Assembly: GCA_964442615.1 (NCBI GenBank)
Contig: CAYUAG010000003.1
Location: forward strand, 2,346-66,345
Source of the DNA: an uncultured bacterium
GTDB lineage: Bacteria > Zhuqueibacterota > QNDG01 > CAYUAG01
Direction of reading: 5' to 3'
Length of the DNA: 64,000 bases
Shown: positions 10,809-48,204 of the stretch, one piece after another
Layout: each line of letters opens with the position of its first letter
Position numbering within the stretch: the first letter of the stretch is position 1
The notes under the pieces: model-generated
The model's input: the letters and a program-made list of their open reading frames with translations, nothing else
Told to the model about the DNA's origin: nothing
Database searches by the model: none
Position numbers and translations under genes: made by a program

Positions 10809-10876
10809 CATTTTACTTTTAATGTCCTATTCAGCACAAAACAGACTATCAATTTTTAAAACATTCTTTCTGAAAC

Positions 10877-16300: not shown

Positions 16301-16911
16301 ATGGTATCATTATCCAGAAAGGTAAGACCCAATGAAATGAATCCATAAACAATCAGCAAACCAATTCCTGCTATGTAGGTCATCACCATTTTACGAGTAA
16401 TAGTTGCCAGAGAGAAAAAAATGCTGCCAATCAGAAAAAGATTGGGAATAAGAATAAAAATTATAGGGAGCATAAATCCAGATAGACTGAAGGAACCATA
16501 ATATTTCGGATCAATCACCAGGCAGCCAATTATTAAACCAATGATAGCTCCAGAAAAGATCATCAGGTTGGCAAAGAGCCCACCCAGAAAACGTCCGCCC
16601 AGATAAGCAGCTTTACTCATGGGGATGGTGAAAAAAAAGTCATGAATTTTGGCACGGAAATCTTTGGTAACTGCTCTTCCCATCATCATAATGGTGATTA
16701 AAATACCATACACACTTAAAAGTGCAAAAAATCTGGCGATGATTAAAGGTGCATTGTGCCATTCTCTACCAATCGGTATTGCGACTACTGTATTTGGATC
16801 GATATTGGAAGCAAAAATGTAAGTGTATATTAAATAAATGGTTGTAAAAATATAAAAAGAAATGTTTTTCAAATTTTTCTTTAATTCTGTTATGAATATT
16901 ACTTTAAACAT
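13327..16911 (-). CDS. ABC-2-type permease (about 13 predicted TM segments, duplicated 6-TM ABC-2 module) fused to a C-terminal M1-like (gluzincin) zinc peptidase domain
   Basis: 1194 aa. The first ~560 aa hold two sets of about six hydrophobic helices plus a 13th TM (KIALAILVILFLVTGSTIYY) just before the soluble domain. The C-terminal ~600 aa carry HEITHNWW...E (HEXXH plus a downstream Glu, the M1/aminopeptidase-N-like zincin signature). Paralog of 21291-24989. Sits immediately downstream of an ABC ATPase. Confidence 0.7.
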   Translation of the reverse strand: MFKVIFITELKKNLKNISFYIFTTIYLIYTYIFASNIDPNTVVAIPIGREWHNAPLIIARFFALLSVYGILITIMMMGRAVTKDFRAKIHDFFFTIPMSKAAYLGGRFLGGLFANLMIFSGAIIGLIIGCLVIDPKYYGSFSLSGFMLPIIFILIPNLFLIGSIFFSLATITRKMVMTYIAGIGLLIVYGFISLGLTFLDNDTIRILADPFAISSLGVLTKYWTVSEINTNTMPLSGWLLLNRGIWLTVSFAIIYFTWNKFKFISILESKKNRVISNSNDFELKSTTCSEPIKTSTIDNSFTLQLKKCFHLVGREFKRIVFHPAFIILTIMAMANIFVNFYANVGFGDDNRYPLTSYFLQQMDYIWVYIIPMIIFFGGVIVWRERDNNSHQFYDTLPTPEWLNYLSKLFALMSIITFFVIMIMATGIFTQVVILRWTDIELGLYLKQVFGIHLINYWHIGIMILLIQNLVKNKYLGFFICALYFIADILIFMVSGYDNILLRYGYIPSIIYSNMNGYGHYGPIILWYTLYWLIFAFILGIISSLTWRRNEETRLKYRIRIAFQNLRHSHKIALAILVILFLVTGSTIYYNKYILNQYRSEDHSIQMQADYEKKYSKFLLTVQPKIEHIKLNVDIFPKQRNVLIKGYYSLRNKTNKAIDTLFVNLPDWKITKINQLEFSQPADLTYQDKEYGFRIYRLGKPLNPGNEIVLTFDLEARTIGFTESNPKNELAYNGTCLFLSGGWGPNEYFPGIGYNRLIEIEKNFERKKYGLPERPEYPPLEKEENKWNFSNTTYDAIISTDSSQTIVSNGNLMKQWKDQDRNYFHYQTDIPMKNEISIVSGEYEVATDEQDGVLVEVYYYKKHHWNIQRLIKGMKSSLNYCSSNFCQYPYSAFRIAEIPNYYAFGARSQPSMVVWTESAVFIDNIEDPEANDQMFGIAAHEITHNWWPYIVAPSFAEGCELTTEAICQYVWIMCLEKEYGKAMARKQLGEVMDDYLRGRKNDTEGERTLVRQFMRYYITYAKSMVAMYALQNYIGEENVNKALKCIIDKYGRRENSFINSLDIISAFRENTPDSLQYIITDLFETITLHENQVLTANYRALHTGKYRVSFKVSSHKFRADSNGKQTEIPLNDYIYIGVLGKDEEELYLKKHKFTKNTQQFDIIVDKQPVQAGIDPYLILIDRNRDNNMKKVAVSE

Positions 16912-17002
16912 TTACATACTCCATGGATATTACTAATGATTTGTTGTCTGTTGTTCCTTAAATAAATTTTCTCCTGTCAAAGAATGATAGATTTATGGAT
17001 AA

Positions 17003-17869
17003 TTAGTTATTCAAATGATAAAAATAAACATCCTCTAAGGTCGCAGTAACAGATGAAAATCCATTTACCGGCTTAGTTTCACGATAAGCACGAATAAATG
17101 TTTTTCCTGCAAAAAGCCGGGTAGAAATAATATTGTATTTTTCCTGGTATTCACCCAAGTCGGTTTTTTTGATTTCCCTTTCCCAGATTTTTCCATCCAA
17201 TTGAGAAATCGCATCAAGTGTATTTTCTGTTAAAACAATCTTGCCCCTGTTAATTATTGCCATATTTGTACAAAGATCGCTGACATCATCTACAATATGG
17301 GTTGAAAGTATGACAACAATGTTTTCACCAATTTCACTCAACAGGTTATGAAAACGAACCCGTTCGGCAGGATCCAAACCGGCAGTGGGTTCATCAACAA
17401 TAATTAATTGGGGATTACCCAGTAATGCCTGGGCAATGCCAAAACGCTGTCTCATGCCATTTGAAAAAGTACCCAATTTTTGTTTTCTTTCTTTCCAGAG
17501 GTTTACTCGTTTCAAGAGCTGTTCTACTTTTAATTTGCGATCCTTTTTATCTCGTATTCCCTTTAATAAAGTGAAGTGCTCCAGCAGGTTATATGCATTC
17601 TCTTTAGGATAGAAACCAAAATCCTGTGGTAAATAACCAAGTATTTTTTTGACTTCGTTTTTCTGTTTTAAAACATCTATCTGGCCCAAACTAATTTTTC
17701 CTGAATCTGCTTCCTGCAGGGTAGCTATTGTTCTCATCAGTGTTGATTTTCCCGCTCCATTAGGCCCCAATAAACCGAACAGTCCGTTTGGGATTTCAAG
17801 TGATACATCATCCAAAGCTACTACACCATTGGCATAGGTTTTGGATAGATTTTTTATTGACAGTTTCAT
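17003..17869 (-). CDS. ABC transporter ATP-binding protein (partner of the permease-M1 fusion), with a conserved C-terminal extension of about 80 aa
   Basis: Walker A GPNGAGKST, signature FSNGMRQR, Walker B LIIVDEPTAGLD. About 70% identical to the ATPase at 20400. Confidence 0.85.
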   Translation of the reverse strand: MKLSIKNLSKTYANGVVALDDVSLEIPNGLFGLLGPNGAGKSTLMRTIATLQEADSGKISLGQIDVLKQKNEVKKILGYLPQDFGFYPKENAYNLLEHFTLLKGIRDKKDRKLKVEQLLKRVNLWKERKQKLGTFSNGMRQRFGIAQALLGNPQLIIVDEPTAGLDPAERVRFHNLLSEIGENIVVILSTHIVDDVSDLCTNMAIINRGKIVLTENTLDAISQLDGKIWEREIKKTDLGEYQEKYNIISTRLFAGKTFIRAYRETKPVNGFSSVTATLEDVYFYHLNN

Positions 17870-18073
17870 TATGCAATTACTCCTCTATTTTTTCATATTT
17901 TTTGAGTAGAACAAATACTCATTGTTTTAAATAAAATATGTCTTTTAAAACTCCAAAAAGCAAAAAAGAATGACAAACGAGTGCCGTACAATGATAAATG
18001 CTTTCTTTTACCTGGTGAACGACATAGGTCAAAAAACAGTTGTATTTAGTAATTAAAAGTGTATATTTGAAAT

Positions 18074-19087
18074 ATGAAATTCACCTTGAAGAACAAACTT
18101 TTGATGAAGCTGTGGGAAAACCAGCTTTTTCGTCATATATTCTATTGGATCTGTGGATTTATCTTTTTAATTTTAAATGTTATTATATGGGATAGTATTA
18201 CTAATGCTTATCTAATAGGATTAATAGTTATTGTACCAGGAATTATCCCGGTTTATCTCCATTTCTATTTACATAAACGATTCTTTAAACGAAGACAATA
18301 CCTGCCTTATATTTTTTTCATTGTCCTTATCCTCATTGGTTCTCAATTCTTTACGGAAGGCTTAATTCGTCTTATAGAAAAAGGTGAGGATACTCACACC
18401 TCCGGAGCAGCCACTGCTTTGTTTTATATTATACTTACAACTACTATAAAATATTATAAAAAGGGCGTAAAACAACAAGTTCGCCTGCAGGAAGCGGAAG
18501 CCAAACAACTTCAGACTGAACTGGTATTACTTAAATCCCAGGTTAATCCCCATTTCTTCTTCAACACTCTAAACAATCTGTATGCACTCAGTCTGGATCA
18601 ATCGAAACGGGTTCCGGAAGTGATTCTTAAGATATCTGATTTGATGCGTTACATACTGGAGAGTTCTAACAATAAGAAGGTTTTATTAACTCAGGAAGTC
18701 AACTTTGTACAGAATTATTTGTCATTGGAGAAACTTCGATTAAGTGTCAATAGTGATATTTCTTTTAATCTATCTGGTAACCCGGATGGAAAAACCATAG
18801 CTCCCATGCTTTTCATTCCCTTTATTGAAAACAGCTTTAAACATGGTATCTCTGCCTCAACCAGGAGCAATTATGTGCATATTGATTTGAAAATTCAAGA
18901 AAACGATCTATTCTTTTCGGTTGAGAACAATAAGCGGGAAAACTATAAAACAAAAGATCAATCATCATCAAAGTCAGGAATAATAAATGTAACCAGAAGA
19001 TTGCAACTATTGTATCCTGATAAACATAAACTGGATATTGAAGAAAATAAAAAATCTTACAGGGTTGATTTAAAAATCGAATTATGA
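18074..19087 (+). CDS. LytS/YehU-type sensor histidine kinase (His_kinase PF06580-like), membrane-embedded with no obvious extracytoplasmic sensor domain
   Basis: About 4 N-terminal TM helices, then the His-box region QVNPHFFFNTLNNLYAL characteristic of LytS-family kinases, then an ATPase-like C-terminus. Stop overlaps the start of the downstream LytTR regulator (ATGA). Confidence 0.75.
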   Translation: MKFTLKNKLLMKLWENQLFRHIFYWICGFIFLILNVIIWDSITNAYLIGLIVIVPGIIPVYLHFYLHKRFFKRRQYLPYIFFIVLILIGSQFFTEGLIRLIEKGEDTHTSGAATALFYIILTTTIKYYKKGVKQQVRLQEAEAKQLQTELVLLKSQVNPHFFFNTLNNLYALSLDQSKRVPEVILKISDLMRYILESSNNKKVLLTQEVNFVQNYLSLEKLRLSVNSDISFNLSGNPDGKTIAPMLFIPFIENSFKHGISASTRSNYVHIDLKIQENDLFFSVENNKRENYKTKDQSSSKSGIINVTRRLQLLYPDKHKLDIEENKKSYRVDLKIEL

Positions 19088-19803
19088 AAATGAAGTGTAT
19101 TGTCGTGGATGATGAGCCTTTGGCACAGAGAGTGCTGGAGAAATATATCTCGTCATTATCGTCATTGGAATTATTGAAAAAATGTAATAACGCTTTAGAG
19201 GCAATGGCGTTCTTGCATGAAAATAAAGTCGATATTATGTTTTTGGATATCAAAATGCCGGAGCTTACCGGCATCGAGTTTCTGAAAACCCTGACTCATC
19301 CTCCACAGATAATTATTACAACCGCTTATTCCCAGTATGCGGTGCAAAGTTATGAATTCTCGGTTATTGATTATTTACTTAAGCCCTTTTCATTTGAAAG
19401 GTTTTTAAAGGCAGTCAACAAGGTAATAAATAAAAAAGTGGAAAAAAACAGCACTTTGTCTGTAAATCCCGAACCTGTTCAAGATTTTATTTTTTTAAAA
19501 GCGGATAAAATCGATCATAAAATATTCTATTCCCAGATAAAATATATCGAAGGATGCGGAAATTATATAAAAATCTTTACTGATAATAAAATGCTTATGG
19601 TAGCCGAAACAATGACTGAAGTTGAAAAAAATCTGCCTAGGGAATTATTCATTAGAACCCATAAGTCCTTTATTGTTTCAATCAAAAAAATCGATCAGAT
19701 AGAAGGGAATATGATTCGTATTGGTGATAAAACTATTCCGATAGGAAATTATTACCGATTGTGTGTAAATACAATTCTTGATAAATATAATCTTAAAAAA
19801 TAA
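19084..19803 (+). CDS. LytTR-family two-component response regulator (REC + LytTR DNA-binding domain)
   Basis: N-terminal REC (IVVDDEPLAQ...DIMFLDIKMPELTG) with the phospho-acceptor Asp context. C-terminal LytTR domain (FIRTHKSFIVSIKKI). Confidence 0.8.
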   Translation: MKMKCIVVDDEPLAQRVLEKYISSLSSLELLKKCNNALEAMAFLHENKVDIMFLDIKMPELTGIEFLKTLTHPPQIIITTAYSQYAVQSYEFSVIDYLLKPFSFERFLKAVNKVINKKVEKNSTLSVNPEPVQDFIFLKADKIDHKIFYSQIKYIEGCGNYIKIFTDNKMLMVAETMTEVEKNLPRELFIRTHKSFIVSIKKIDQIEGNMIRIGDKTIPIGNYYRLCVNTILDKYNLKK

Positions 19804-20068
19804 AATGTCAACAGCTTGTTTTTTCCCTCCAATTTTTCAAGTTTTACTATTTTCAGTAATATCCTATACAGAATTGTAACTTTATCAGAATTCGCCCCGA
19901 ATCAGTAAAAGAATATCTCTTGACCATTGCTTATAAGGGATTTTTAGAGCTCCGGTGGAGAAGAATGTGAGGTTTGTCTGAAAAATGGTTTTACTGATTC
20001 ACCATCTAAACCTGATAAAATATTCAAATCGGAACTTATACTCCCAAGAGTTAAGACTGTACATCAGA

Positions 20069-20150
20069 GGTTACCAGATATTGATTGAGCAGCTTTTATG
20101 TTACCGGTTCTGTATGAACTTACCTTAGGCTAAAATTGCTAGTAACCTCC
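20069..20150. promoter_or_regulatory. Cluster of imperfect GTTACC-type direct repeats, a candidate LytTR operator upstream of the second ABC operon
   Basis: GGTTACCAG (20069), TGTTACCGG (20099) and CTTACCTTA (20119), plus an inverted copy GTAACCTCC (20142). The last two direct copies are about 20-21 bp apart, the spacing typical of LytTR direct-repeat sites. Found by eye only. Confidence 0.2.
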
Positions 20151-20399
20151 TACAGTCCTTTATGACGGCTGTGGTAAAGATACATCGCTTTAGGAAAAAA
20201 TTAATCAGTTTGTTATTTAAAATTGATATTTTTGGTTTGACCTTTTTTTCTTAAATAAATGCAATTCTTTTTCTAACAGAAAACATTGTAACTTTTCGTT
20301 TGCTTATGCATAGTATGATTAGAAAAACAATACAGCCAATTTTCTGATTAGGTCTGTGTTCGTATAGTATCACATTAACTGATAATAAAAGGAGTAGAT

Positions 20400-21269
20400 A
20401 TGCATTTAGAAATTCAAGATCTTTCAAAGGTATATACTAATGGAGTGGTTGCTTTAAAAAATGTATCTCTGAACATCCAGACTGGAATGTTCGGATTATT
20501 AGGGCCAAATGGTGCTGGAAAGACCACTTTGATGAGAATAATTGTTACCCTGTTGGAAGCTGATAATGGAACTATTCAACTTGGAGACATCAATATCCTT
20601 AAAGAAAAAATCAGATTGAAAAAAGTATTGAGTTATTTGCCACAGGAGTTTGGATTTTATCCAAAAGCAAGAACCTATAACCTGCTTGATCATTTTGCCA
20701 TGCTGAAAGGAATTAGGGAAAGAAAAATACGTAAACAAGTTGTGGAACATCTTTTAAAGCGAGTGAATCTCTGGAATGCCAGAAAGCAAAGATTGGGTAC
20801 GTATTCGGGTGGTATGAAACAGCGTTTTGGTATTGCATTGACTTTACTTGGGAATCCTCAATTAATTATTGTTGATGAACCTACAGCCGGCCTGGATCCT
20901 GCAGAGCGGAATCGTTTTTATAATGTATTAAGCGAGATTGGTGAAAATATTGTGGTGATACTTTCTACTCATATTGTGGAAGATGTTAGTGTCTTATGCA
21001 CCCATATGGCTATTATCAACAATGGTGAAATTCTATTAAAAGAAAGGCCAATTGCTGTCCTTTCAGCTATAAAAGGGAAACTGTGGGAAAAGGAAATAGA
21101 AAAAGTTGAATTATCCTACTATGAGGAAAAATATAAAGTCATTTCAACAAGATTATTTTCAGGAAAAACATTCATTCATATTTATTGTGAAGATAATCCA
21201 GCCAATGGATTCTCCCTCTGTCAGGCAACTTTAGAAGACGCCTATTTTTATCATTTAAACAAGAATTAA
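20400..21269 (+). CDS. ABC transporter ATP-binding protein, paralog of 17003-17869
   Basis: Walker A GPNGAGKTT, signature YSGGMKQR, Walker B LIIVDEPTAGLD. Same C-terminal extension as the first ATPase (ATLEDAYFYHLN). Confidence 0.85.
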   Translation: MHLEIQDLSKVYTNGVVALKNVSLNIQTGMFGLLGPNGAGKTTLMRIIVTLLEADNGTIQLGDINILKEKIRLKKVLSYLPQEFGFYPKARTYNLLDHFAMLKGIRERKIRKQVVEHLLKRVNLWNARKQRLGTYSGGMKQRFGIALTLLGNPQLIIVDEPTAGLDPAERNRFYNVLSEIGENIVVILSTHIVEDVSVLCTHMAIINNGEILLKERPIAVLSAIKGKLWEKEIEKVELSYYEEKYKVISTRLFSGKTFIHIYCEDNPANGFSLCQATLEDAYFYHLNKN

Positions 21270-21290
21270 TCCCATGAAAGGATATCCAAG

Positions 21291-24200
21291 ATGTTCCTTA
21301 CTATTTATTTTCATGAAATTAGAGAAAACTGTAAGAGTATTTCCTTTTTTATATTTGCTGTTGTCCTGTTTGGTCTTGCCTATTTAAATGCTTCCAATAC
21401 CAGCTCCAGTATGGTGGTTATTATCCAACATGGGCAATCGTTGCATAATGCTCCATTATTCATTGCTCGGTTTATGGCAATTATGTCTGTTTTATCGCTG
21501 TTATTTACAATTAGAATTGTTGGAAGGTCAGTTGTTAAAGATTTTCAAGCTAATATGCATGATTTTTATTTTACCATGCCGATAAGAAAGGTAGTTTATC
21601 TTATGGGAAGATTTTCTGCAGGTATTACTACTAATACAATTATCTTTATAGGAGCTTTATTGGGAATTATTATTGGATGTTCAGTTATTGAGGCGAGATA
21701 CATCGGGACACATCAACTGTCTGCCTATTTGTTTACCTTATTTATCATTCTTATTCCTAACCTGGTTATTATAGGCAGTGTTTTTTTCTCTATAGCGACC
21801 CTTAGTCGTAAAATGATAACTACATACATTATTGGCGTTGCTTTTGTAATGATCTATTTTATTGTCACCCTTGGTATTGCTGATACAAGTCATGAAAATG
21901 TTAAGGTTCTTGCTGATCCTTTTGGAATAGGTTTTTTAGAAGTGGTATCAAAATATTGGACAATTACTGAAATCAACCACAATCTGATTCCCCTTAATAA
22001 GCTTATCATTATGAATCGAATCATCTGGCTTGCAATCAGTATGGGAATTTTTTTCTTTACTTGGAGCAGATTTAAATTTGTCTCTGTATTAGAGACAAAG
22101 GGGGTGAGAAACAATAAGATAAAATGCAGTATTATTTTACTCTTAATAAAAACAAAAAATATTTTTAAAAAATATGGAAGTTATTTGTTCTCAACTCCTA
22201 AAGAAAAATTAATTTCAATGGATAAGAAATCTTCAGAATCCAAAATGGTTACAGACTACAGTCATCTACCAGAGTCTGTAATTATTGATTCGTTTATCAT
22301 TCAGCTACAGAAATGTTTTCGTCTTATGGTTGTGGAGTTTAAGAATATTGTTTTTCATCCTGCCTTCATCCTTATTACTATAGTAGCCTTGCTTCAAATT
22401 TATATCAATTTTACCAGTCACGATGTAATGGAAAGTGTTACATATCCGCTTACATCAATATACCTGCAGCATGTAAAAAATATCGACATATTTCTTATAT
22501 TAATCACCTTGGTTTTTAGCGGGATGGTTGTATGGAGAGAAAGAGATTATCAATCGAATGAGCTGTATGATGTGCTTGCTTTACCTGATTGGATGGTACA
22601 TTTCTCCAAACTTTTTTCAATCTTAGCCATGCAATTATGTGTCTTAATGCTCTGTATCTTTCTAGGGATTTTTACACAGGTGGTTATTTATGGGTATACC
22701 AACATTGAATTGAATCTTTATGTAAAATCGCTGATTGGTATTCAGGTATTACGTTATTTTTATCTGGCAGTACTGTTTATCTTTGTACAAAACCTTGCCA
22801 ACAATAAATATATTGGTTATTTAGTTTGTGTCTCATTAATAATGATAGGCGTTTTTGTCCCTCAATGTATTGAGTCTGATATAAGCTTATTTCAATATGG
22901 TAGTCTTCCAGTTTATATTTATTCAAATCTCAATGGATATGGTCATTTTGTAACTGTCCTGATCTGGTATCAAATCTATTGGTTCTGTCTGGCATTTATT
23001 ATTGTGATAGTTTCAAATATTCTTTGGCGCAGAAGTAAGGAAACTAGGCTGAAATTCAGAATTAAAAATGCAGTGAATAATTTCAACAAAAAATATGCAT
23101 TAACATTATTTATTTTAACTATTTTATGGTTACTGGTAGGTTGTTATATCTATTATAATAATCACATCCTTAATAAATACCTTACTGAAAACAAGCAAAA
23201 ATCAAAACTGGCAACCTATGAAAAAAAGTATAAGCAATATCAGAATTCTCCTCACCCAAGTATCACCCATGTTAATCTTGAGGTAGAGTTATATCCAGAA
23301 GATCGAGATGTATTTATTAAAGGTTTATATAGGCTACAAAATAAAACCCTACAAAAAATTAACCATATTCATATTGGTTTGTCTGATAGAAAAATCTCCA
23401 GGATACATAAGTTTGCATTTTCAGCGGAGACAGAAGTTGTATTAGAAGATAAAGAGCATTGGTTTTTTATATATCATCTTAAAGAACCTTTATTACCTGG
23501 TGCAGAATTAGAAATTGATTTCGATTTTGATATTCTTACCAATAGCTTTTCCATAAACAATCCTAAAAATGAATTAGCACATAACGGTATGGTTATTACA
23601 AATTTTCCTCTGCTACCACCTGAATATTTACCCCAGATTGGCTATAATCAATATTTAGAGTTAAGTAATCAATATGATAGAGAACTATACGGTTTACCGA
23701 AACGTTATCAAATTGTTTCTTTTGATGACAGTATTGAGTATAATACAACAATATTTCGTGATCTTGTGAGCTATGAAGCAGTCATCAGTACAAACAAACC
23801 TCAGATAGCTGTGACAAATGGAGAACTGGTAAAATCATGGATAGATAACAACAGGAATTATTTCCACTATAAAACCGATTCTCAAATGAATAATGCATTG
23901 GTTATTCACTCTGGAGAGTATCAATTAAAGAAGGAAACATATAAAGGCTTACTTGTTACAGTTTATTACAATAAAAATCATGCTTACAATATTCAGCGAA
24001 TAATGGATGGCATTAAGTATGCTTATGATTATTGTTCACTGAATTACAGCCCATATACTTACAAAGATTTAAGAGTGGTGGAAGTACCAAATTGCTGGGT
24101 TTTTTTACGAGGTGGGGTGCTGTCATTACCTGCTCTTTTTTCATGGAGTGAAGATGCGGGTTTTATTGATAACCTGGAAAGGGATCACGCTCCTGATAAT

Positions 24201-24989
24201 GTTTTCCCAATTGCTGCACATGAAATGGCGCATCAGTGGTGGGCCCATACAGTCAGACCCGCCTCTGTTCAAGGAGCTGAATTTGTGGTTGAGACAATGG
24301 CCATGTGGGTGCAGATCATGTGCATGCAGAAGGAACAGGGATTGAAGAAAACACAGAAATACTTGAAACATGAAATGGTTGATTATTTACGATTCAGGAG
24401 TGGTGAGATGAATGCGGAACAGCCTTTAGTTTATTCAGAAGGACAAGGATATGTAAGCTATCAAAAGGGCGTGGTGGCTATGTATGCTTTGCAGGATTAT
24501 ATTGGAGAAGATGTCGTGAATCTAGCCCTAAAAAGTATTGTAAAAAAATATGGATTTAAGAATGCTCCTTATCCAACAAGCTTAAATTTGATTAAATTCT
24601 TCAGATCCGTAACACCTGATAGTCTACAATATGTTATTACAGATTTATTCGAAACCATTACACTATACGAGAATAAAGCAGAATCTGCGGCTTATACAAA
24701 ATTGAGTAACGGTAAATTCAAGCTAAGTTTAACCATATCAAGTAAAAAATTAAGATCTGACGGAATGGGATATCAGACTGAAATACCAGTAAATGATTAT
24801 ATGAGTATAGGTGTTTTTGGTGATAATAATGAAGAGTTATACTTGAAAAAACACAAAATAAATAAAAACCAAATGACCTTTGAGATAATAGTGGATAAAA
24901 AACCAGTTAGAGCAGGCATTGATCCAAACATAATCTTGATTGATAGAAATAGAGAAAATAATATCACGACCGTAGAAAAGATTGAATAA
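21291..24989 (+). CDS. ABC-2-type permease fused to a C-terminal M1-like zinc peptidase domain, paralog of 13327-16911
   Basis: 1232 aa. Same architecture with a 13th TM (KYALTLFILTILWLLVGCYIYY) and HEMAHQWW...E zincin motif. Carries a ~40 aa insertion in the inter-module linker relative to the first copy. Confidence 0.7.
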   Translation: MFLTIYFHEIRENCKSISFFIFAVVLFGLAYLNASNTSSSMVVIIQHGQSLHNAPLFIARFMAIMSVLSLLFTIRIVGRSVVKDFQANMHDFYFTMPIRKVVYLMGRFSAGITTNTIIFIGALLGIIIGCSVIEARYIGTHQLSAYLFTLFIILIPNLVIIGSVFFSIATLSRKMITTYIIGVAFVMIYFIVTLGIADTSHENVKVLADPFGIGFLEVVSKYWTITEINHNLIPLNKLIIMNRIIWLAISMGIFFFTWSRFKFVSVLETKGVRNNKIKCSIILLLIKTKNIFKKYGSYLFSTPKEKLISMDKKSSESKMVTDYSHLPESVIIDSFIIQLQKCFRLMVVEFKNIVFHPAFILITIVALLQIYINFTSHDVMESVTYPLTSIYLQHVKNIDIFLILITLVFSGMVVWRERDYQSNELYDVLALPDWMVHFSKLFSILAMQLCVLMLCIFLGIFTQVVIYGYTNIELNLYVKSLIGIQVLRYFYLAVLFIFVQNLANNKYIGYLVCVSLIMIGVFVPQCIESDISLFQYGSLPVYIYSNLNGYGHFVTVLIWYQIYWFCLAFIIVIVSNILWRRSKETRLKFRIKNAVNNFNKKYALTLFILTILWLLVGCYIYYNNHILNKYLTENKQKSKLATYEKKYKQYQNSPHPSITHVNLEVELYPEDRDVFIKGLYRLQNKTLQKINHIHIGLSDRKISRIHKFAFSAETEVVLEDKEHWFFIYHLKEPLLPGAELEIDFDFDILTNSFSINNPKNELAHNGMVITNFPLLPPEYLPQIGYNQYLELSNQYDRELYGLPKRYQIVSFDDSIEYNTTIFRDLVSYEAVISTNKPQIAVTNGELVKSWIDNNRNYFHYKTDSQMNNALVIHSGEYQLKKETYKGLLVTVYYNKNHAYNIQRIMDGIKYAYDYCSLNYSPYTYKDLRVVEVPNCWVFLRGGVLSLPALFSWSEDAGFIDNLERDHAPDNVFPIAAHEMAHQWWAHTVRPASVQGAEFVVETMAMWVQIMCMQKEQGLKKTQKYLKHEMVDYLRFRSGEMNAEQPLVYSEGQGYVSYQKGVVAMYALQDYIGEDVVNLALKSIVKKYGFKNAPYPTSLNLIKFFRSVTPDSLQYVITDLFETITLYENKAESAAYTKLSNGKFKLSLTISSKKLRSDGMGYQTEIPVNDYMSIGVFGDNNEELYLKKHKINKNQMTFEIIVDKKPVRAGIDPNIILIDRNRENNITTVEKIE

Positions 24990-25062
24990 TTTTATTTTTT
25001 GTGACCTATATGTTTGTTGGATTTTGATGAGATTTATAGATAAACTGATTGTAAAAATTTTT

Positions 25063-25112
25063 AGACGGGATTAACAGGATATATAGTTTTATTTATTCTG
25101 TTAATCTCGTCT
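25063..25112. repeat. 15-bp inverted repeat (one mismatch) with a 20-nt spacer between convergent genes
   Basis: AGACGGGATTAACAG (25063-25077) ... CTGTTAATCTCGTCT (25098-25112). Lies in the gap between 24989 (+) and 25176 (-). No adjacent U-run, so it is not a canonical terminator. Confidence 0.3.
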
Positions 25113-25175
25113 AAATAATAGGATTCTTTATAATTACATCTGGAATGGAGTTTATATTTCGTTTTGGTTTGCTGG

Positions 25176-25859
25176 TTAATTCCCTTCTTCCAGAAGACGC
25201 AGGGTAAATCTGACCAGCTTGAATGATTCTCGAATATGAAATCCGGCCTTTCGCAGCTGATTATTTCTTAATGCTTCGCCTGATTTTAAGTAGTGATATA
25301 CAGCTTTTCTATATACATATAGTACGCGTGGATTCTCTTGATTTTCAAGATTATTTTTTACTTCATCAAGAAATTCTTTAAGCTCAATTCTTTTATCTAT
25401 AAGTTTTTCTTTAACATTTTTCAGTTTATCATGCATTTCTTCACGCACAAGTTTTACAGCTTCAATTGCTAAATATGCACTTTCTTTTATGTAATCAAAA
25501 GCTTCTTCATATTGTTCCTGTTGGACAGCTTGGATTGCATTATCTTTTGCTTCATAAGCTTTTTCTAGAATTTCCTTTGCTTCTTCATTATCATTGATGA
25601 TAACAAATTTTCGTGCTTTTTGTAACAGTTTATTTAACTTGAGTAGGGCGATTTTGAATCGTTTTATCAAGTTCTCATAAGTAGTATCAGTAAGTATTGA
25701 TTCATGTTCCAGATCGATTTCACTCTCTAGTATATACAGCTCTTCTATGGAGTTCTCTATTTGTTCTTCCGGATTAGTGGATGTGGAATTTTTACTACAC
25801 TGAGTTACTATGAAAACCAAACTGAACAACAGCACTACTGTTATACATTGTCTTACCAT
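25176..25859 (-). CDS. Hypothetical secreted/lipoprotein, predicted all-alpha coiled-coil
   Basis: Signal peptide ending ...FIVTQC (lipobox-like Cys). The rest is K/E-rich heptad-like sequence with no recognisable catalytic motif. Confidence 0.4.
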   Translation of the reverse strand: MVRQCITVVLLFSLVFIVTQCSKNSTSTNPEEQIENSIEELYILESEIDLEHESILTDTTYENLIKRFKIALLKLNKLLQKARKFVIINDNEEAKEILEKAYEAKDNAIQAVQQEQYEEAFDYIKESAYLAIEAVKLVREEMHDKLKNVKEKLIDKRIELKEFLDEVKNNLENQENPRVLYVYRKAVYHYLKSGEALRNNQLRKAGFHIRESFKLVRFTLRLLEEGN

Positions 25860-26545
25860 GATTTTCTCCTTTCTGATTGTGATTATTTTTTAGATTAATT
25901 ATCAGTTTTATGATGATTTACATTTATATGAACGTAGGGATAATGAGAATATTGTGTTCAATTGTTACTTTTATATTTTTTTTGGGAAAATGTACAGAAT
26001 TTTTGAATTTGGTTAGAATAGGGGAGATTTTACGTGGCATGAAAGCTTCACCTTCCCTAAAAAAAATAAATTTTATGCAACCTTTTTGGTTGATTATGTG
26101 TCATATATATAGAGAGAAATTAAAATAATTTAAAATATGGAATAGGATGATGAAGAAAAGGCAGATTACTCGTTTTGAAGCGGAAGATTTAATCAAAAAA
26201 ATGGAGGTACTTTATTCTGAGATTCAATGTAAACAGAAGGAAATGCAAATTTTATTCAGGCTTTCTAATAGTAAACAATTTTTTGTGATTTATAATTTGA
26301 GCAGTCATAATAAAAGTTATTATATTGTGGAATGAAATTTTTTTATTATATTATTATATATTAATAGGTAGATATAACAAAGAAAACATTGATGAAAAGA
26401 TTTTCATATTTTTGATTAATAAATCATTATAAGAGTAACTTTTTACTTTTTTAAAAAATCGTATATAAATGTTATTAATTTAAAATTAAAAGTTTACTCA
26501 TGTTTTTGAAGTTTTTAGAAAAGTTTTAAAAAATTAGTTACACAA

Positions 26546-26749
26546 TCAATCTATTAATTTTACGTTTTCAGCTTGTGGTCCTTTATCTTTTTCAACAATA
26601 TCAAACTCTACTCGATCACCTTCATTCAGTGCTTTAAAACCATCCATAGAAAGTGCAGTAAAATGGACAAAGACATCCTCTCCATCTTCTCTTTTTATAA
26701 ATCCATATCCTTTGTTTCTACTAAACCATTTAATAGTACCCTGAGGCAT
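26546..26749 (-). CDS. cspA: Cold-shock protein (CspA family, S1-like cold-shock domain)
   Basis: [33 protein letters not shown]... is a textbook CSD sequence with RNP1/RNP2 motifs (KGYGFI, VFVHF). It is flanked by long AT-rich leaders typical of csp genes. Confidence 0.9.
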
Positions 26750-26908
26750 ATTTTACCCTTTCTTTTAATAAAATATTAACTGAGATTAATAATTTATTTT
26801 AGTAATTTTTATAAAATATAAAATAATTGGGTAAATAATGCAAGATAAAATTGCAATTCAAATTTTTTTTCCTTAAATTAGTTACTTTAGAAACAAAGGA
26901 GAAAATCA

Positions 26909-27217
26909 ATGGCATACACTTTTATTGAGCTTAAAAAGAAAACCCTTGCTGATTTAAAAAAAATTGCGAAAGAGATAGATCATGAAGCAGTTAAAGGATA
27001 TACCCAGATGAATAAAGATCATTTGTTTGAGGCAGTATGCAAAGCTTTAAATATTCAAATGCATGAGCATCACGAAGTTAAGGGTGTTGATAAAACCGCA
27101 ATAAAGAAACAAATCAAAGAATTAAAGAAGAAAAGAGATAAAGTACTTGAAACTCATGATCATAAGAAACTTAAGGAAGTACGTCAGAAGATTAAAAAGT
27201 TAAAAAAAACGTTATAA
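26909..27217 (+). CDS. Small lysine-rich protein with an N-terminal Rho_N-like (Rho termination factor N-terminal / SAP-like) motif
   Basis: ELKKKTLADLKKIAKEIDHEAVKGYTQMNKDHLFEAVCKAL fits the Rho_N consensus (L.eLk.k.l.eLkeiAkelgi.g.s.mrK.eLi.ai). The highly basic K-rich C-terminal tail suggests nucleic-acid binding. Confidence 0.4.
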   Translation: MAYTFIELKKKTLADLKKIAKEIDHEAVKGYTQMNKDHLFEAVCKALNIQMHEHHEVKGVDKTAIKKQIKELKKKRDKVLETHDHKKLKEVRQKIKKLKKTL

Positions 27218-27317
27218 AAAGCAACTGTATAAAACCTTTTTGGAAAGAGACCAACAAGTAATACATTAGTTTTAATTTTTTTAAGAAATGTATGGTTGAT
27301 TATTTTTTATAAAATAA

Positions 27318-38945: not shown

Positions 38946-40346
38946 CTATTTATGAACTTTTTTTAGAAAATTTTCCATCTCAGGTATGCCTCCTTGAAAT
39001 ATCAGATAGCCATTATAAGGTTCTCTTTCTGTTATTTCGTCACGTATGGGAGTAAGCATGATTTTTTCTACTTGCTCCAGATCCTCGGTCTGACCCAGAG
39101 CCCATCCCAGTTTTACATAGGCTACTTCCGGAAGCATGTTTTTTGCAGGAATAATCCCTTTGTTCATCAGGTCTCTGCCGGTATCATACACAAACATATG
39201 CACATATCCCCAGAGAGTCTGGACAGTCATATAGATGGCCACACCCTTTTTTGCAGCCCGTTCAATAGCAGGATACACAGGTTTGTTCACATGTCCTAGT
39301 CCGGTTCCGGCAATAACAATACCCCGATATCCGTTATCAACAATAGAATCAATAATATCTGGCTGCATATTGGGATAATAGTAAAGAAGCATTACTTTTT
39401 CTTCAAAAAAAGGATAGATGTCAACCTTCTTATTCTTTCTGCGCTTATTATACTCTTTTTTTATTGGGATTATTCTATTTTTCTCCACCATGGCGATAGG
39501 AGTATCTCCCAGTGTACGGAAGGTAGATCTATAGGAAGAATGCATTTTACGTACCCGGCAGCCACTATGAAGGAGACCGTATTCATCAGATGTGGGTCCG
39601 AACATGCAGACCATAACTTCAGCAATATCGGAATGAGCAGCAGTATAGCAAGCATGTATTAGGTTCAGGGCAGCATCAGAAGAAGGTCTGTCGGATGAGC
39701 GCTGTGAACCGACCAATACTATGGGAACCGGATTATTTTGAATCATAAAGGTTAAAGCAGCGGCTGTATGGTGCATGGTATCGGTTCCATGTCCAATTAC
39801 TATTCCATCAATCCCTTTTTCAATTTCCTCTTTTATAGATTCAGCAAGTTTTATATATTGCTGCGGCCCCATGTTTTCACTGAAAACAGCAAATAGCTCC
39901 TGGGTGGATAAATTACAAATATCAGCAAGTTCAGGTACGGAACCGTATAGTTCACCGGGTGAAAAGGCAGGTATGACAGCTCCAGTTCTGTAATCCAGTC
40001 GGGAAGCTATGGTACCGCCAGTTCCAAAGAGTTTGATGTTTGGTTTATCAGAGGAGGTGGGAAACTCCTTTTCAGGTATTTTATAGTTTGCTTTTTTATA
40101 CCCTAATTCTTCAATATTTTGTATGGTATCTGTATCAATGCCAATATTATATCCGGTATCAAGTTTTAAAACAAGATGTTTATCATCGTCAAAAGCTGAG
40201 CGCGGGAGTATTATCCCTTTAAATTTTCCTCGGGTGGTATTTACCTTCACCTCACTCCAGACTTTTACTTTATATTTTTCAAGTACTGTTAATCCTCTAC
40301 CTTTGTATCCCTTAAATTGCTCTTCACTCATGTAATTTTCCTTCAA
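38946..40346 (-). CDS. gatD: Glutamyl-tRNA(Gln) amidotransferase subunit D (archaeal-type, asparaginase-like)
   Basis: The N-terminal domain (KGIILPRSAFDDDKHLVLKLDTGYNIGI) matches the archaeal GatD N-terminal consensus (G.LMPR...D.IV.KLDNGYN.G). This is followed by L-asparaginase family motifs GTGGTIAS and HGTDTM. Overlaps gatE by 23 nt. Confidence 0.8.
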   Translation of the reverse strand: MKENYMSEEQFKGYKGRGLTVLEKYKVKVWSEVKVNTTRGKFKGIILPRSAFDDDKHLVLKLDTGYNIGIDTDTIQNIEELGYKKANYKIPEKEFPTSSDKPNIKLFGTGGTIASRLDYRTGAVIPAFSPGELYGSVPELADICNLSTQELFAVFSENMGPQQYIKLAESIKEEIEKGIDGIVIGHGTDTMHHTAAALTFMIQNNPVPIVLVGSQRSSDRPSSDAALNLIHACYTAAHSDIAEVMVCMFGPTSDEYGLLHSGCRVRKMHSSYRSTFRTLGDTPIAMVEKNRIIPIKKEYNKRRKNKKVDIYPFFEEKVMLLYYYPNMQPDIIDSIVDNGYRGIVIAGTGLGHVNKPVYPAIERAAKKGVAIYMTVQTLWGYVHMFVYDTGRDLMNKGIIPAKNMLPEVAYVKLGWALGQTEDLEQVEKIMLTPIRDEITEREPYNGYLIFQGGIPEMENFLKKVHK

Positions 40347-42291
40347 CTATATCTCTGAGTTCTGAGAGATCTATATTACCAACAGCTTTTTTTCTTAGCT
40401 GACCCATAATCCAGTTAACCTCAGCTTTTGGACTATCGGTTTTGGAATTTTTTTTAAAAGTCTCATTTAACTTTTGGATTTCTGAGGTAATTTCTTGTTT
40501 ACTCCTGGACTTGAAATCAATATATTGTAACAGGGTTTCCATAGATCCAGTGTGATTTTCTGCCATAGCGGTGATCAGCACCTTAAGAATTTCTCTATGC
40601 AGCTTTTTTTTATGTACATTTACAAATAATTTTTTTATTATAGTTTCAAAACTGTTATAATTTTTTTTAAGCTTTTTATCATAATGTTTGATATGATGTC
40701 CTATAATGCTGCCGATAAAAGAGGGAGGAAAATCAGTGTGATCGATTATATTCTTAAGAAGAGAGAAAAGATTATTTCTCAGAATATAACCAAAACAGTC
40801 CAGAGGAATTTCCCACTCTCTCATTTTCTTGATACAGGTATGGATCTCTTCAGGTAGATCTTTTCCGGCTTCATTAATCATTTTTTCACTGATGGGAATA
40901 GGTGCGGAATCAGTATCTGGATACATTCTATCCGGCCCTGGTAGAACCCGTTCGAAAATAGTTGTACTGTCAGGCATGGATTTACGGGTTTCATTGAGTA
41001 CACCATGAAAGGCTAATTTACATCGCTCTTCAATGGTTTCAATACCGGTTTTTATATCCTCCTGCTGCCCCCAGAAAATAATCTGGGCATCTTCAGATTT
41101 ACTTTTTAACTGGGAACGGATTTTTTCCAATTCATTCTTAGAGAGATAGGGCTCCATAGATTCTGAATGGAACATATTTGGTTTGGGAATACAGGCAATA
41201 ACCTCAATTCGATCACTTATCTCATCAGCAAAAACACGACCTGGAGAGGTAAAAAAGGATAAAATATTTTCAAAATTAGGGAGATTTACCGCGATGATTT
41301 TATAGTCTTTATTTAATATATTTTTTATTGTAAGAGAACTAGTTTTTGCAAGTAAGGAATTTATCTCGTTATAGTTGATTTTCCAGTCTTCTGTATTTTT
41401 AATTTTTTGCAGTAGTCTGTTTTTTATTTCAATCAGAGCTTTTTGCCGAAATGCTTCCTTATGTGTTAATTCAGGTATCAATTTAATATGAGCTACACCT
41501 TTTATTTCAACTCTTGTTCCCCCTCTAATACTTACATTTACATCCTCTCTGGCAGCACCAATTCCTGTATTTACCATACCAGTACTTCTGGTTAAATATC
41601 GTATATATTGAGCAGCTTCAGCTACCTCATCAGGAGTATTCAGGTCAGGATAGGTGACCACTTCCACCAGAGGTATGCCAAGTCTATCTGTTACATATAC
41701 TCTGTCATGACCCATATCAGATACTTCCCGGCAGGCATCCTCTTCCAGCCCCAGTTGAATCACTTTTACCTTTTTTGAAGTAAGGGGGATTTCACCCTCT
41801 ATGCCTACCAGTCCTGTACGCTGAAATCCAGTGGGAATGCTTCCGTCTAGATACTGTTTCCTGGTAATATGAAATTCACCCACAATATTCATTTTTAACT
41901 GGAGGGCAATCCGTATTGATATTTTTAATGCCTCAGGATTTAATAAAAAGGGAGGGGTATCATCAATCTCATAGGTGCAGGCAGTTTTATTGTTAATATG
42001 GTAGTAAATATTTTTTTTTGTTTTGAACTCCATTAAGGCTGTTCCATCATATTCACCCAGCTCACTTAAGGTGGGGCGCATATGACGTACAACTTCAGCA
42101 TCATAGTCATCTTTGTTATGATAGATTCCAGCCGGACAGTGACAAAATAACTTTTTTTCAGTAGTTATCTGCTGATGAATTTCTAAGCCACTTTTAAATC
42201 CTAACTCTTGGTAAATTGCAGGTGAAGCATCCTTTTTTGAAACATAACCTATTGATTTTTTAGTATTCTCTAGATTATTGTGTGGATCCAA
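40324..42291 (-). CDS. gatE: Glutamyl-tRNA(Gln) amidotransferase subunit E (archaeal-type GatB paralog)
   Basis: SGLEIHQQITTEKKLFCHCP...MRPTLSELGEYD matches the GatE-specific N-terminus (GLEIHQQL..KLFC.C...RPT.SELG). The 655 aa length is typical of GatE; GatB is about 480 aa. Confidence 0.8.
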   Translation of the reverse strand: MDPHNNLENTKKSIGYVSKKDASPAIYQELGFKSGLEIHQQITTEKKLFCHCPAGIYHNKDDYDAEVVRHMRPTLSELGEYDGTALMEFKTKKNIYYHINNKTACTYEIDDTPPFLLNPEALKISIRIALQLKMNIVGEFHITRKQYLDGSIPTGFQRTGLVGIEGEIPLTSKKVKVIQLGLEEDACREVSDMGHDRVYVTDRLGIPLVEVVTYPDLNTPDEVAEAAQYIRYLTRSTGMVNTGIGAAREDVNVSIRGGTRVEIKGVAHIKLIPELTHKEAFRQKALIEIKNRLLQKIKNTEDWKINYNEINSLLAKTSSLTIKNILNKDYKIIAVNLPNFENILSFFTSPGRVFADEISDRIEVIACIPKPNMFHSESMEPYLSKNELEKIRSQLKSKSEDAQIIFWGQQEDIKTGIETIEERCKLAFHGVLNETRKSMPDSTTIFERVLPGPDRMYPDTDSAPIPISEKMINEAGKDLPEEIHTCIKKMREWEIPLDCFGYILRNNLFSLLKNIIDHTDFPPSFIGSIIGHHIKHYDKKLKKNYNSFETIIKKLFVNVHKKKLHREILKVLITAMAENHTGSMETLLQYIDFKSRSKQEITSEIQKLNETFKKNSKTDSPKAEVNWIMGQLRKKAVGNIDLSELRDIVEGKLHE

Positions 42292-42451
42292 ATTTTCCTC
42301 ATTTTTAGATTAACAGATTGGATAATATACTTATCACAGTCTATATTGTCAAGTTAAAAACTTTTCTATTACTAAGGAGGAAGATTGTTAAAAATAAATT
42401 TACATGAATATTTATGGAACTTACTGATCAGTGAAACGTAATTGATATATC

Positions 42452-46233: not shown

Positions 46234-48204
46234 GTGAAAGATTTTTACAGCTATTGCAATAGAGTAATAGGTGTAAAGAATATTAATCTGATCAATATCA
46301 AAAAAGGTGGGAAGGCCATGATAAAGAACAATCATGAAAAATTTGAAAGATATAGGAAAATTTGTATGCACCAAGCAATTTTGCAGATTTGTATTGTTAT
46401 TTCAATTTTTATATCAGTAACTTGTTTATATGATTTTATTGTATATAAAAACAGTGTATTTAATTTTCCATTCATTCCTCTTAGTCTTATATTTATTACT
46501 ATAATTATTTGTATTTTTAATAAAATTTTTCAACTGAAACTGAATCCCTATTATTTTAGTCTTATGGTAGCAGTAACTGTTACTACCGGGATTTCCTTAA
46601 TGTGTTATATTAATCCATTTGCTGTTATATCATCTCTTTCAACAATAATCCTATTAATCTTATACTTTGGTATATTTTTACCTTTTAACCTTAAAGAAGG
46701 TATATTATTATTTTCATTAGTGTGGATTTTTTTTCTCATACCTAAATTTTTTCAAATTAATAGTTATGAAACTGAAACCTTTGGAAAAGATAATCTTTTT
46801 GTACTTTCCTCTATTATATTTTCAATTTATTGGTCAAAAAAAAGATTTAGGGAAAGAAAAAAATTATGGGTTTTAAATGCATATTGTAAATCAATGAAAC
46901 AAAAATGTGAAATCAAATCTGGTAATGTTGAAAATCAAATTCAGCAAACGGATAAAAACATAGCTAAAACTGAACGAGTAGCCTTTATTGGTCAAGTAAT
47001 AAGTAGCTTTGTTCATGATTTAAATAATTTTTTAACCATAATTTTGGGAAAGAGTGATCTGGTATATGATTCTCTTTCTGAAGAAGATAAAAATCGGCAA
47101 CATATCGAAACAGTGACAAAAACATGTAGAAAGGCAGCTACATTGATAAAAAAATTACTTACAGTAAGTAATTGTCAGGTTTTCATGCCCTGCAAAAAAA
47201 ATCTTAATGAAATTATTAATGATGTTAAGGATATGGTAATCCACACACTATCCCATAACATTGATCTTATTGTAAAGGAAGCTCCAAAATTAAAATTGGT
47301 TAAGGTTGATCCTTTACAGATAGAGCAAATTTTATTGAATTTATGTATTAATGCAAGAGATGCCATGCCCTATGGAGGTAAATTGATATTAGAAACCAAC
47401 AATGTAACTCTGGATGAAACCTATTGTAATTAAAGATATCTATCCCTTGTACCAGGAGAGTATGTAATGATCGCTATCGGTGATAAAGGTACCGGAATAA
47501 GTAAAAAAATTAAGTCCCAAATTTTTAATCCTTTTTTTACAACAAAAGATAGGGATTCTGGAACAGGGCTGGGTCTTTCTTCTGTTCATAGAATTATTAA
47601 GGAGAGTAAAGGAGACATAGTTGTGTATTCTGAAGAAGGGAGGGGTACAGTGTTTAAACTTTTTTTCCCGGCTTACAAACCAGTTTCAAATATTAAATAT
47701 AATACAAAAAATTTATATATTCCGAATGATATTTCTAACCGTTTAGGCAAAAAGGAGACAATACTTATTGTTGATGATAATGAAAGTATTCTTCATATGA
47801 CATCCTGTATGCTCAAAAATTATGGGTATAATGTTATGGAAGCACGAAGTAGTCAACAAGCGATTACTTTAATCAAAAAATTTAATAAAAAGATTAATCT
47901 TATGATTACAGATGTTGTACTCCCTGATATGAGCGGAAAAGAACTTTATAAAAAGGTTATAAAAAAATATTCAAACATAAGAATACTTTACACTTCTGGT
48001 TTTACTAGTTATTTATTACGGCATAATGCTTTGCTTGATAGTGATAGTAGTAAAAATTTAATTCAAAAACCGTTTACTACTGTTGAGTTGATTAATAAAG
48101 TTAAGGATTCTCTAAAAAAAAAGGAAGAGAGTAAGTATTTAAATCATGATAACTCATTTAATAAAACAACCAATAGTGAATTTTATTGTAGGATAAATAA
48201 ATAA
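46234..48204 (+). pseudogene. Hybrid sensor histidine kinase (multi-TM sensor, HisKA, HATPase_c, REC) interrupted by a single in-frame TAA at 47431-47433
   Basis: ORF 46234-47433 holds the TM region, the H-box (SFVHDLNNFLT) and the N-box (LCINARDAMP). ORF 47467-48204, in the same frame, continues with the G1/G2 boxes (IGDKGTGI, GTGLGLS) and a complete REC domain (ILIVDD...MITDVVLPDMSG). Read-through gives ...LDETYCN*RYLSLVPGEYVMIAIGDKGTGI, a contiguous HATPase_c sequence. Confidence 0.6.

Follow-up and report, generated by a model that had tools for sequence, protein, structure and literature searches.

A gatE-gatD gene pair on a bacterial contig and the bacterial branch of the GatDE amidotransferase family

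Do bacteria carry GatDE, the amidotransferase that converts Glu-tRNA(Gln) to Gln-tRNA(Gln), and, if so, what is its relation to the archaeal enzyme? According to reviews of 2009-2022 (PMC9499178 and PMC2811023 among them), GatDE 'occurs exclusively in archaea' and represents 'an archaeal signature protein'. The question is raised by a pair of genes on contig CAYUAG010000003.1, of which a stretch of 64,000 nucleotides was analysed (the whole stretch is called the window below). An earlier note on this DNA had read the pair as archaeal-type gatD and gatE in bacterial surroundings, and both overlapping open reading frames (ORFs) are indeed found on the minus strand, including a GatE of 655 amino acids (aa). 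The genes represent a known enzyme family in an undescribed bacterial variant, and together they probably form a translationally coupled operon (gatED) for a working GatDE that amidates Glu-tRNA(Gln) to Gln-tRNA(Gln). The main features of the locus are:

40324..42291, minus strand: gatE, 655 aa, TTG start; predicted kinase/amidotransferase and tRNA-binding subunit
38946..40331, minus strand: gatD, 461 aa, ATG start; predicted glutaminase subunit composed of GatD_N and a type I asparaginase-like fold
40324..40331, minus strand: overlap of the gatE stop and the gatD start, 8 nucleotides (nt), ATGAGTGA; read as translational coupling
42296..42300, minus strand: Shine-Dalgarno sequence GAGGA, 4 nt ahead of the gatE TTG, read from the sequence
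42324..42352, minus strand: candidate sigma-70-like promoter upstream of gatE, TTGACA-17 nt-TATATT, matching 11/12 consensus positions

Both proteins score above the cut-offs of the curated NCBIfam equivalog models of their families, with agreement well past anything expected by chance: GatE reaches 510 bits against NF003107 (cut-off 456) and 420 bits against TIGR00134 (320), and GatD reaches 520 bits against NF003217 (310) and 511 bits against TIGR02153 (324). Against the best GatB models, in contrast, GatE obtains just 132-137 bits, their cut-offs being 315-338. Pfam analysis of GatD revealed the GatD_N, Asparaginase and Asparaginase_C domains; the first of these, PF18195 (57 bits, cut-off 25.7), is the GatD-specific N-terminal domain that had been claimed from the sequence. 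The Pfam GatB_N match in GatE extends over residues 34-472, that is, 439 residues for a 277-position profile, which points to a large insertion (~160 aa) in GatE. The motifs quoted previously were located in both proteins: GLEIHQQ (35-41), KLFCHC (47-52) and RPTLSELG (72-79) in GatE, and the asparaginase-type motifs TGGTIAS, HGTDT and RKMH in GatD. Alignments with the archaeal GatDE crystal structures from Methanothermobacter thermautotrophicus (PDB 2D6F) and Pyrococcus abyssi (PDB 1ZQ1) span almost the whole length of both proteins, with E-values of 1e-87 to 1e-118. An AlphaFold2 model of GatE, built on 41 bacterial sequences (predicted local distance difference test, pLDDT, 84.4; predicted template modelling score, pTM, 0.75), has 1zq1_C and 2d6f_C/D as its best structural matches, with target-normalised TM-scores of 0.78-0.79 and E ~1e-37, GatB scoring ~0.6. 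Placement with a GatB-like or asparaginase clade was tested as the alternative, and the proteins fall in the GatE/GatD family; judged by sequence and predicted structure, the pair is genuine GatD and GatE, and neither GatB nor a plain asparaginase. The core of GatD also passes the cut-off of the TIGR00519 subfamily and keeps the catalytic residues of type I L-asparaginases (AnsA family), from which it differs in possessing PF18195, in its higher scores with the GatD equivalogs and in the translational coupling to gatE.

The similarity to archaeal GatDE includes the two-subunit composition, the domain order and the catalytic columns of GatE, which consists of the following parts:

42214..42291, minus strand: N-terminal extension, residues 1-26; the PDB alignments begin at residue 27
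41422..42213, minus strand: N-terminal part of the cradle (catalytic) domain, residues ~27-290; boundaries approximate, from alignment and model
41047..41421, minus strand: GatE-specific insertion domain, residues ~291-415, not present in GatB; from the Pfam GatB_N span and the model
40327..40881, minus strand: helical domain (~471-545) and YqeY-like tail (~546-655), all-helical in the model

The N-terminal extension of ~26 residues distinguishes the window GatE from the archaeal protein; the median number of residues ahead of the GLEIH motif is 28.5 in bacterial GatE vs 12 in archaeal GatE. The cradle carries residues common to bacterial GatE, archaeal GatE and GatB (E37, H39, K47, R144, K145, Q157, E183, E210, R248, D250, N252, S254, E262 and K264), and bacterial and archaeal GatE have 62 conserved columns in common, those shared with GatB included. 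Features that set GatE apart from GatB are also kept, namely the R69...E77...D82 insertion, D149-G150-S151, R158 and G265. The insertion domain (~125 residues) is predicted to be an alpha/beta module with pLDDT ~90, in the same position as in 1zq1_C and 2d6f_C. Foldseek matched it weakly and locally to bacterial-type AspRS (E 0.01-0.1), which would fit an insertion domain retained in GatE. The tail, by which known GatDE contacts the D-loop of the tRNA, is full-length and aligned to the C-terminus of P. abyssi GatE; it carries a clade-specific motif, W627-IMGQLRKKAVGN-639. Conservation within GatE is lowest in the helical and tail domains, which show 12-16% identity outside the clade and 14-16% to archaeal GatE. 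In GatD, the complete catalytic set (T107, T183, D184 and K262) aligns with the archaeal structures; T107, T183 and D184 do not vary among the 13 GatD sequences compared (10 bacterial, 3 archaeal), and K262 belongs to the RKMH motif found at residue 261. This Thr / Thr-Asp / Lys set constitutes the glutaminase machinery of GatD (PMC2330236).

The organization of the two genes is that of an operon. The gatD ORF can be extended to the first TTG (38946..40346, minus strand, 466 aa), but the ATG five codons in yields the 461-aa protein, and the gene callers applied to an identical contig from the Joint Genome Institute (JGI) and to related contigs put the start at this ATG, window position 40331. 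At 83 of 93 bacterial-type loci (see below) gatE is followed by gatD on the same strand, and most of the remaining 10 stop at a contig edge; where the junction could be called, overlaps of 8 nt (17 loci) and 4 nt (11 loci) were the commonest. Coupled genes and this co-occurrence lend indirect support to the predicted GatD2-GatE2 complex with its ammonia channel. No terminator-like site was found within the pair. The TTGACA-17-TATATT sequence is offered as the gatE promoter as a suggestion, not a demonstration: it is the best site of a 4-kb scan that yielded 17 sites vs 14.4 expected, and was selected by consensus match alone. The guanine plus cytosine (GC) content of the two genes, 0.357 and 0.400, compares with 0.354 ± 0.041 on average over the 42 ORFs listed for the window, and their codon usage is ordinary for it. 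Both genes are under purifying selection, the ratios of nonsynonymous to synonymous substitution rates (dN/dS) in the window and its two closest relatives being 0.11-0.14 for gatE and 0.03-0.04 for gatD, values that are approximate since dS is already 0.95-1.4.

By analogy with the archaeal enzyme, GatD would hydrolyse glutamine or asparagine with its Thr nucleophile and hand the ammonia to GatE. GatE, in turn, would bind Glu-tRNA(Gln), phosphorylate the glutamyl side chain with ATP and amidate the activated side chain, producing Gln-tRNA(Gln). From this analogy we infer the enzymatic activity, the substrate and a role as the route of the cell to Gln-tRNA(Gln).

Since the pair was expected in archaea, an artefact had to be considered, either an assembly chimera or contaminating archaeal DNA fused to a bacterial contig. 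The unexpected taxonomy alone speaks for it. The surroundings are bacterial, and the genes that the earlier note had cited for this (ddl, an lptD-like gene, cspA, a LytTR system, a type IX secretion system (T9SS) cargo protein and Wza/Wzx/Wzy) were for the most part confirmed. The neighbours encode D-Ala-D-Ala ligase (ddl), an LptD-like protein, a ROK kinase, RarA, a flavodoxin, a LolD/LolCE-like ABC transporter, YchF and SerRS; the window also contains the T9SS cargo protein (Por_Secre_tail), the LytTR two-component system and a cluster for polysaccharide export with Poly_export (Wza-like) and Polysacc_synt (Wzx-like). The flanks, with the Lol-like ABC transporter on one side and the flavodoxin, RarA, ROK, LptD and ddl genes on the other, are conserved in three further assemblies (JGI 3300008517, NCBI GCA_046483025.1 and JGI 3300018080), in which both junctions recur; the join is therefore not chimeric. 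Of the three contigs concerned, a JGI contig of 14.7 kb encodes the exact window GatE, and the GatE proteins of the NCBI metagenome-assembled genome (MAG) GCA_046483025.1 and of a second JGI metagenome are 78% and 76% identical to it, respectively. Two relatives of the window clade are found on contigs of 1.9 and 2.26 Mb, amid T9SS cargo proteins and sigma-54 regulators, and their position inside Mb-scale contigs is likewise at odds with a chimera. Such an artefact is already contradicted and has virtually no probability left; a chimeric join or a recent acquisition is excluded for practical purposes, and the pair sits in a real bacterial chromosome, conserved flanks in the assemblies of other samples contradicting the archaeal segment that had been named as a possible objection. 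The named relatives of SerRS (66-67% identical) belong mostly to candidate division KSB1, and the host is probably, if tentatively, a Gram-negative bacterium of the Fibrobacteres-Chlorobi-Bacteroidetes (FCB) group near this division. Scans of the window for tRNAs and Rfam families gave no matches, and glnS, gltX and gatCAB were not found within its 64 kb, where SerRS is present.

Two related loci differ in arrangement. In L006 (10001-13346) the gatE-gatD block is inverted relative to the flanking genes seen in the window, and in L004 (13566-15411) an ECF (extracytoplasmic function) sigma factor and two small genes lie between gatD and the flavodoxin gene; the locus is thus rearranging locally within the window lineage.

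How far does bacterial GatDE extend? The best 120 database matches of GatE listed are all 55-100% identical to it, and those with organism names are all bacterial (Acidobacteria, Aminicenantes, Phycisphaerae, Binatia). In an exhaustive search, 586 of 1.84 billion cluster representatives matched at E ≤ 1e-30, their identities to the window GatE being continuous from 50% to ~28%. In an unrooted neighbour-joining tree of 116 full-length representatives and named sequences, the bacterial and archaeal groups are split with 100% bootstrap support. The bacterial group comprises 40 sequences including that of the window, and every named member is bacterial; further names in it are candidate division CSSED10-310 and Deltaproteobacteria, and candidate division GN15 is also a source. 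A single-protein search of genome contigs yielded two loci, one in a GN15 MAG and the other in a Bathyarchaeia MAG. A metagenome scan with two peptide patterns built on bacterial-specific residues revealed at least 581 loci encoding relatives, confirmed among the 600 stretches listed; some relatives lie on contigs of chromosome scale (1.9-2.9 Mb).

The fetched genomic contexts of the bacterial GatE group are bacterial, apart from an ambiguous one. L009 contains a sigma-54 activator and an RND (resistance-nodulation-division) efflux system that includes an outer-membrane factor; L010, HPr kinase, phosphotransferase system (PTS) genes and TatA; L011, the deepest branch, murC, murD, mraZ, rsmH and lnt; the L012 contig is 2.9 Mb long. 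Two other bacterial contigs with GatDE are L028, which has Lon, RodA, PBP2 and a TonB-dependent receptor, and L093, of 1.89 Mb, which has an LptA-like gene. The ambiguous context, L013, contains archease, DUF835 and several pyruvate:ferredoxin oxidoreductase sets and is neither clearly bacterial nor clearly archaeal; its gatE-gatD (9001-12440) is of bacterial type, with a GatD 60-68% identical to bacterial GatDs. The restriction of GatDE to archaea, which in the reviews concerns distribution and sets no structural requirement, fails, since bacterial contigs carry the genes, that of the host and many related ones, and the window pair belongs to a large, so far undescribed bacterial GatDE branch rather than being a one-off; this group is old relative to the phyla carrying it. 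Two of the loci have irregular partners. In the GN15 MAG (L001, 2635-4375) the gatD following gatE is interrupted, its two ORFs overlapping and lying in different frames, possibly through a frameshift or an assembly error, and in L039 no ORF of at least 100 aa occurs for ~2 kb after gatE.

The relation of this branch to archaeal GatDE bears on inter-domain transfer, which the earlier note had put forward as one of two possibilities. Mean GatE identity is 43% within bacteria, 40% within archaea and 31% between the groups, the latter being about the identity of the window GatE to archaeal GatE in general; its closest archaeal sequences are ~30-38% identical. Bacterial GatDs are tighter, with mutual identities of at least 60% (mean 69%), and are 41-51% identical to five archaeal GatDs that are themselves 40-57% alike; for the window GatD the identity to archaeal GatD is 43-50%. 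The reviews describing GatDE as archaeal would favour a recent, lineage-specific transfer from an archaeon into the window bacterium. Against it stand the bacterial GatE relatives from many phyla, 55-79% identical to that of the window, compared with ~30-38% for archaeal GatE; GC content and codon usage that match the host; and synteny kept in relatives at 76-78% identity. A recent transfer is thus already contradicted and hardly credible: the pair is ordinary in composition and lies within a broad bacterial group ~31% identical to archaea. As to transfer as such, the claim is neither supported nor refuted, because rooting with GatB gave no direction. With three GatB sequences as outgroup (443 shared columns, neighbour-joining, 200 bootstraps, internal branches of 0.006-0.04), no root could be placed on the GatE tree, with 64% for bacterial monophyly and 13% for 'sister to all archaea'; because of this failure, we make no claim of a sister or nested position for bacterial GatE.

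Two independent observations, both from sequence comparison, indicate that among archaea the Asgard group is the closest to bacterial GatDE. First, eight archaeal GatE representatives branch beside the bacterial stem in the neighbour-joining tree; in the unrooted tree, Heimdallarchaeota P0280 grouped with bacterial GatE at 60% bootstrap. Second, the same eight share 4-6 of the nine signature columns that distinguish bacterial from archaeal GatE (among them Y107, Y147, I/V152, P153 and D459), whereas the remaining ~80 archaeal sequences share no more than two. Names are available for four of the eight, all of them Asgard (Heimdallarchaeota, Hodarchaeales, Thorarchaeota and Odinarchaeota). Three of the states in common (Y147, P153 and D459), at which most archaeal GatE differ, are also carried by most or all of the three GatB sequences; because of this, they may be ancestral states rather than evidence of transfer. 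The Thorarchaeota locus resembles the bacterial ones further in the order gatE→gatD and in giving no Pfam GAD match. The differences from Asgard GatDE include an identity of ~35-38% for the window GatE (by the search's own measure), the 100% bootstrap split of the groups, the divergent transcription of the Heimdallarchaeota genes and a Heimdallarchaeota GatE with detectable GAD and YqeY domains. The third archaeal locus, from Bathyarchaeia, has the order gatD→gatE, and its GatE as a query gave matches from Bathyarchaeia alone. Among archaeal GatDs, that of Heimdallarchaeota is closest by a narrow margin, a minor supporting point that is weakened by the two archaeal GatDs of the PDB (50% vs 47% and 46%).

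Among the archaeal sequences, the Thorarchaeota GatD (L019, 7953-9302) has Cys for the first Thr of the TGGT motif and keeps the second Thr, the presumed nucleophile. A GatE homologue was found on CP031304.1 of Natrinema thermotolerans (L017), a 987-kb replicon recorded as a plasmid, at a place with no annotated gene; the longest ORF there is cut short, at 448 aa counted from the first Met, and the sequence served as an extra archaeal tip alone.

What tRNA would the bacterial enzyme meet? Archaeal GatDE recognises the first pair A1-U72 of tRNA-Gln (PMC9499178, PMC2811023), while bacterial GatCAB is reported to read U1-A72 on tRNA-Gln and tRNA-Asn (PMC2811023). GatB does so via a 3-10 turn that GatE does not have, and the tail of GatE bears a GXXAXGX motif vs a Lys-rich motif in GatB (PMC9499178, PMC2811023). 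Two GatDE-bearing bacterial contigs also carry a tRNA-Gln gene, for tRNA-Gln(UUG) on L028 and for tRNA-Gln(CUG) on L093, and each of these tRNAs shows U1-A72 and A73. What bacterial GatDE has to work on is therefore a tRNA-Gln with the bacterial first pair (n=2), a statement about the substrate at hand and not about enzyme specificity. This separates the carriers from archaea with their A1-U72 tRNA-Gln and places the presumed substrate with that of GatCAB. A further GatDE-bearing bacterial contig (L079, 13847-13919, minus strand) carries a tRNA-Glu(UUC) with a G1•U72 wobble and A73.

The bacterial GatE shares with GatB the homologous cradle and kinase/amidotransferase chemistry, but GatB has no insertion domain, and the partner of GatE is the asparaginase-type GatD and not the amidase GatA with GatC. 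The loop facing the first base pair has 12 residues in 40 of 40 bacterial GatE sequences vs 14 in GatB, and acquisition by bacterial GatE of the GatB 3-10 turn, which precedes the R-x-D-x-N-x-S motif, is thereby ruled out; in this short loop the window GatE resembles the archaeal protein. The loop consensus is GKVR(T/R)GxGAA in bacteria vs GKVKRGLGTI in archaea. The tail of archaeal GatE reads MGxxMKxxRGKxDGK, with a similar LRGRVxG in most bacterial GatE outside the window clade.

Several observations weigh against a conventional GatDE function of the window pair. The loop of the window lineage reads GMVNTGIGAA (238-247), with GMVNTG where the clade consensus is GKVRTG, both positive charges being lost, and the tail of the window clade is remodelled to WIMGQLRxxALGNxxL. 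The insertion and tail have diverged so far from archaeal GatE that Pfam GAD (PF02938) is undetected by sequence in the window GatE, unlike in most archaeal GatE, and PF02637, the YqeY tail domain, does not reach its cut-off (24.4 vs 27 bits). At one locus (L053, 9989-11968) a bacterial-type gatE has no adjacent gatD, the next genes lying on the opposite strand. Finally, no gatA, gatB, gltX or glnS was found near gatED in the 96 loci and the window (1.33 Mb), a null that is uninformative because less than one chance match per gene was estimated. Because of the remodelled tail and the lost loop charges, tRNA specificity could differ from that of the archaeal enzyme, and differences of this kind in loop and tail are what one would expect from these sequences if tRNA recognition had been re-tuned.

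Two other functions were weighed on the same evidence. GatDE homologues might have been recruited to a job unrelated to tRNA, for instance as an asparaginase/glutaminase combined with a small-molecule kinase: the tRNA-binding domains are the least conserved parts, and the gene neighbourhood is variable and contains no translation genes. We consider this improbable, as the helical and tail domains are full-length and confidently predicted, the length of the first-base-pair loop is constant in all 40 bacterial sequences, and the archaeal gatD and gatE also have no conserved neighbourhood at the three archaeal loci. Somewhat less improbable, though still unlikely, is an amidotransferase whose tRNA specificity differs from that of archaeal GatDE or is wider, one that might for example act on Asp-tRNA(Asn) also or instead and do the whole job of GatCAB in bacteria without it. 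GatCAB is reported to read U1-A72 on both tRNAs (PMC2811023) and the tRNA-Gln here is U1-A72, and the helical and tail domains, as given above, are only 12-16% identical to those of other GatE; yet the pocket columns that distinguish GatE from GatB (D149-G150-S151, R158, G265, R69...E77...D82) and the GatE-specific insertion domain are kept, and no tRNA-Asn was seen from any GatDE-bearing bacterium. Glu-tRNA(Gln) amidation by a coupled GatDE is thus the reading that we prefer.

A wider scenario may be put forward tentatively, as one that could be true but that we would not expect to be. Bacterial GatDE would be a distinct old lineage adapted to U1-A72 tRNA-Gln, replacing GatCAB and/or GlnRS in several uncultured phyla and perhaps serving Asn-tRNA too, and its Asgard kinship and GatB-like residues would be traces of an ancient exchange between Asgard archaea and bacteria, or else of a GatDE older than the split of the domains. 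If true, either origin would overturn the status of GatDE as an 'archaeal signature protein' and the argument of exclusive co-evolution. Reviews cite GatDE as a translation component peculiar to archaea and connect the lack of GlnRS there with GatDE having co-evolved with the A1-U72 pair of archaeal tRNA-Gln, and a bacterial GatDE in cells with U1-A72 tRNA-Gln makes this argument directly testable. It also raises the questions of how a GatE-type loop deals with the reversed base pair, whether the enzyme has dual specificity and whether GatCAB is dispensed with; it adds a data point on GatDE before the separation of the two prokaryotic domains and flags a possible link between Asgard archaea and bacteria.

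A full-text literature search, with most subscription papers outside its scope, found no report of a bacterial GatDE. The description of GatDE as the archaeal route to Gln-tRNA(Gln), from which the earlier note started, agrees with the reviews but not with the databases, which already hold many bacterial GatD and GatE and name them automatically; the NCBI pipeline, for example, labels proteins of bacterial MAGs as GatD and GatE. The gap is thus one of literature and experiments rather than of detection.

Some further features of the window were noted. The region 25000-27300 has the lowest GC content of the window (~0.275) and contains short ORFs alone, among them a 227-aa protein (25176-25859) with no Pfam match and a 67-aa cold-shock-like protein (26546-26749). 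The latter had been listed as cspA among the bacterial neighbours, an assignment based on the look of this ORF and nothing more. At 46234-48204 (plus strand) a hybrid histidine kinase/response regulator is split into ORFs of 399 aa and 245 aa by one in-frame TAA; the junction reads …DETYCN*RYLSLVPGEYVMIAIGD…, while in L004 and L006 there is one gene of 604-621 aa. The TAA may have arisen by nonsense mutation or by a sequencing error, or it may be read through. Finally, the region 13327-24989 contains two copies of a module facing outwards and flanking the LytTR-type two-component system (18074-19803). Each copy consists of an ABC ATPase (17003-17869; 20400-21269) and a polytopic membrane protein of ~1200 aa with a C-terminal peptidase M1 domain:

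13327-16911: ~1200-aa membrane/peptidase M1 protein, first copy
21291-24989: ~1200-aa membrane/peptidase M1 protein, second copy

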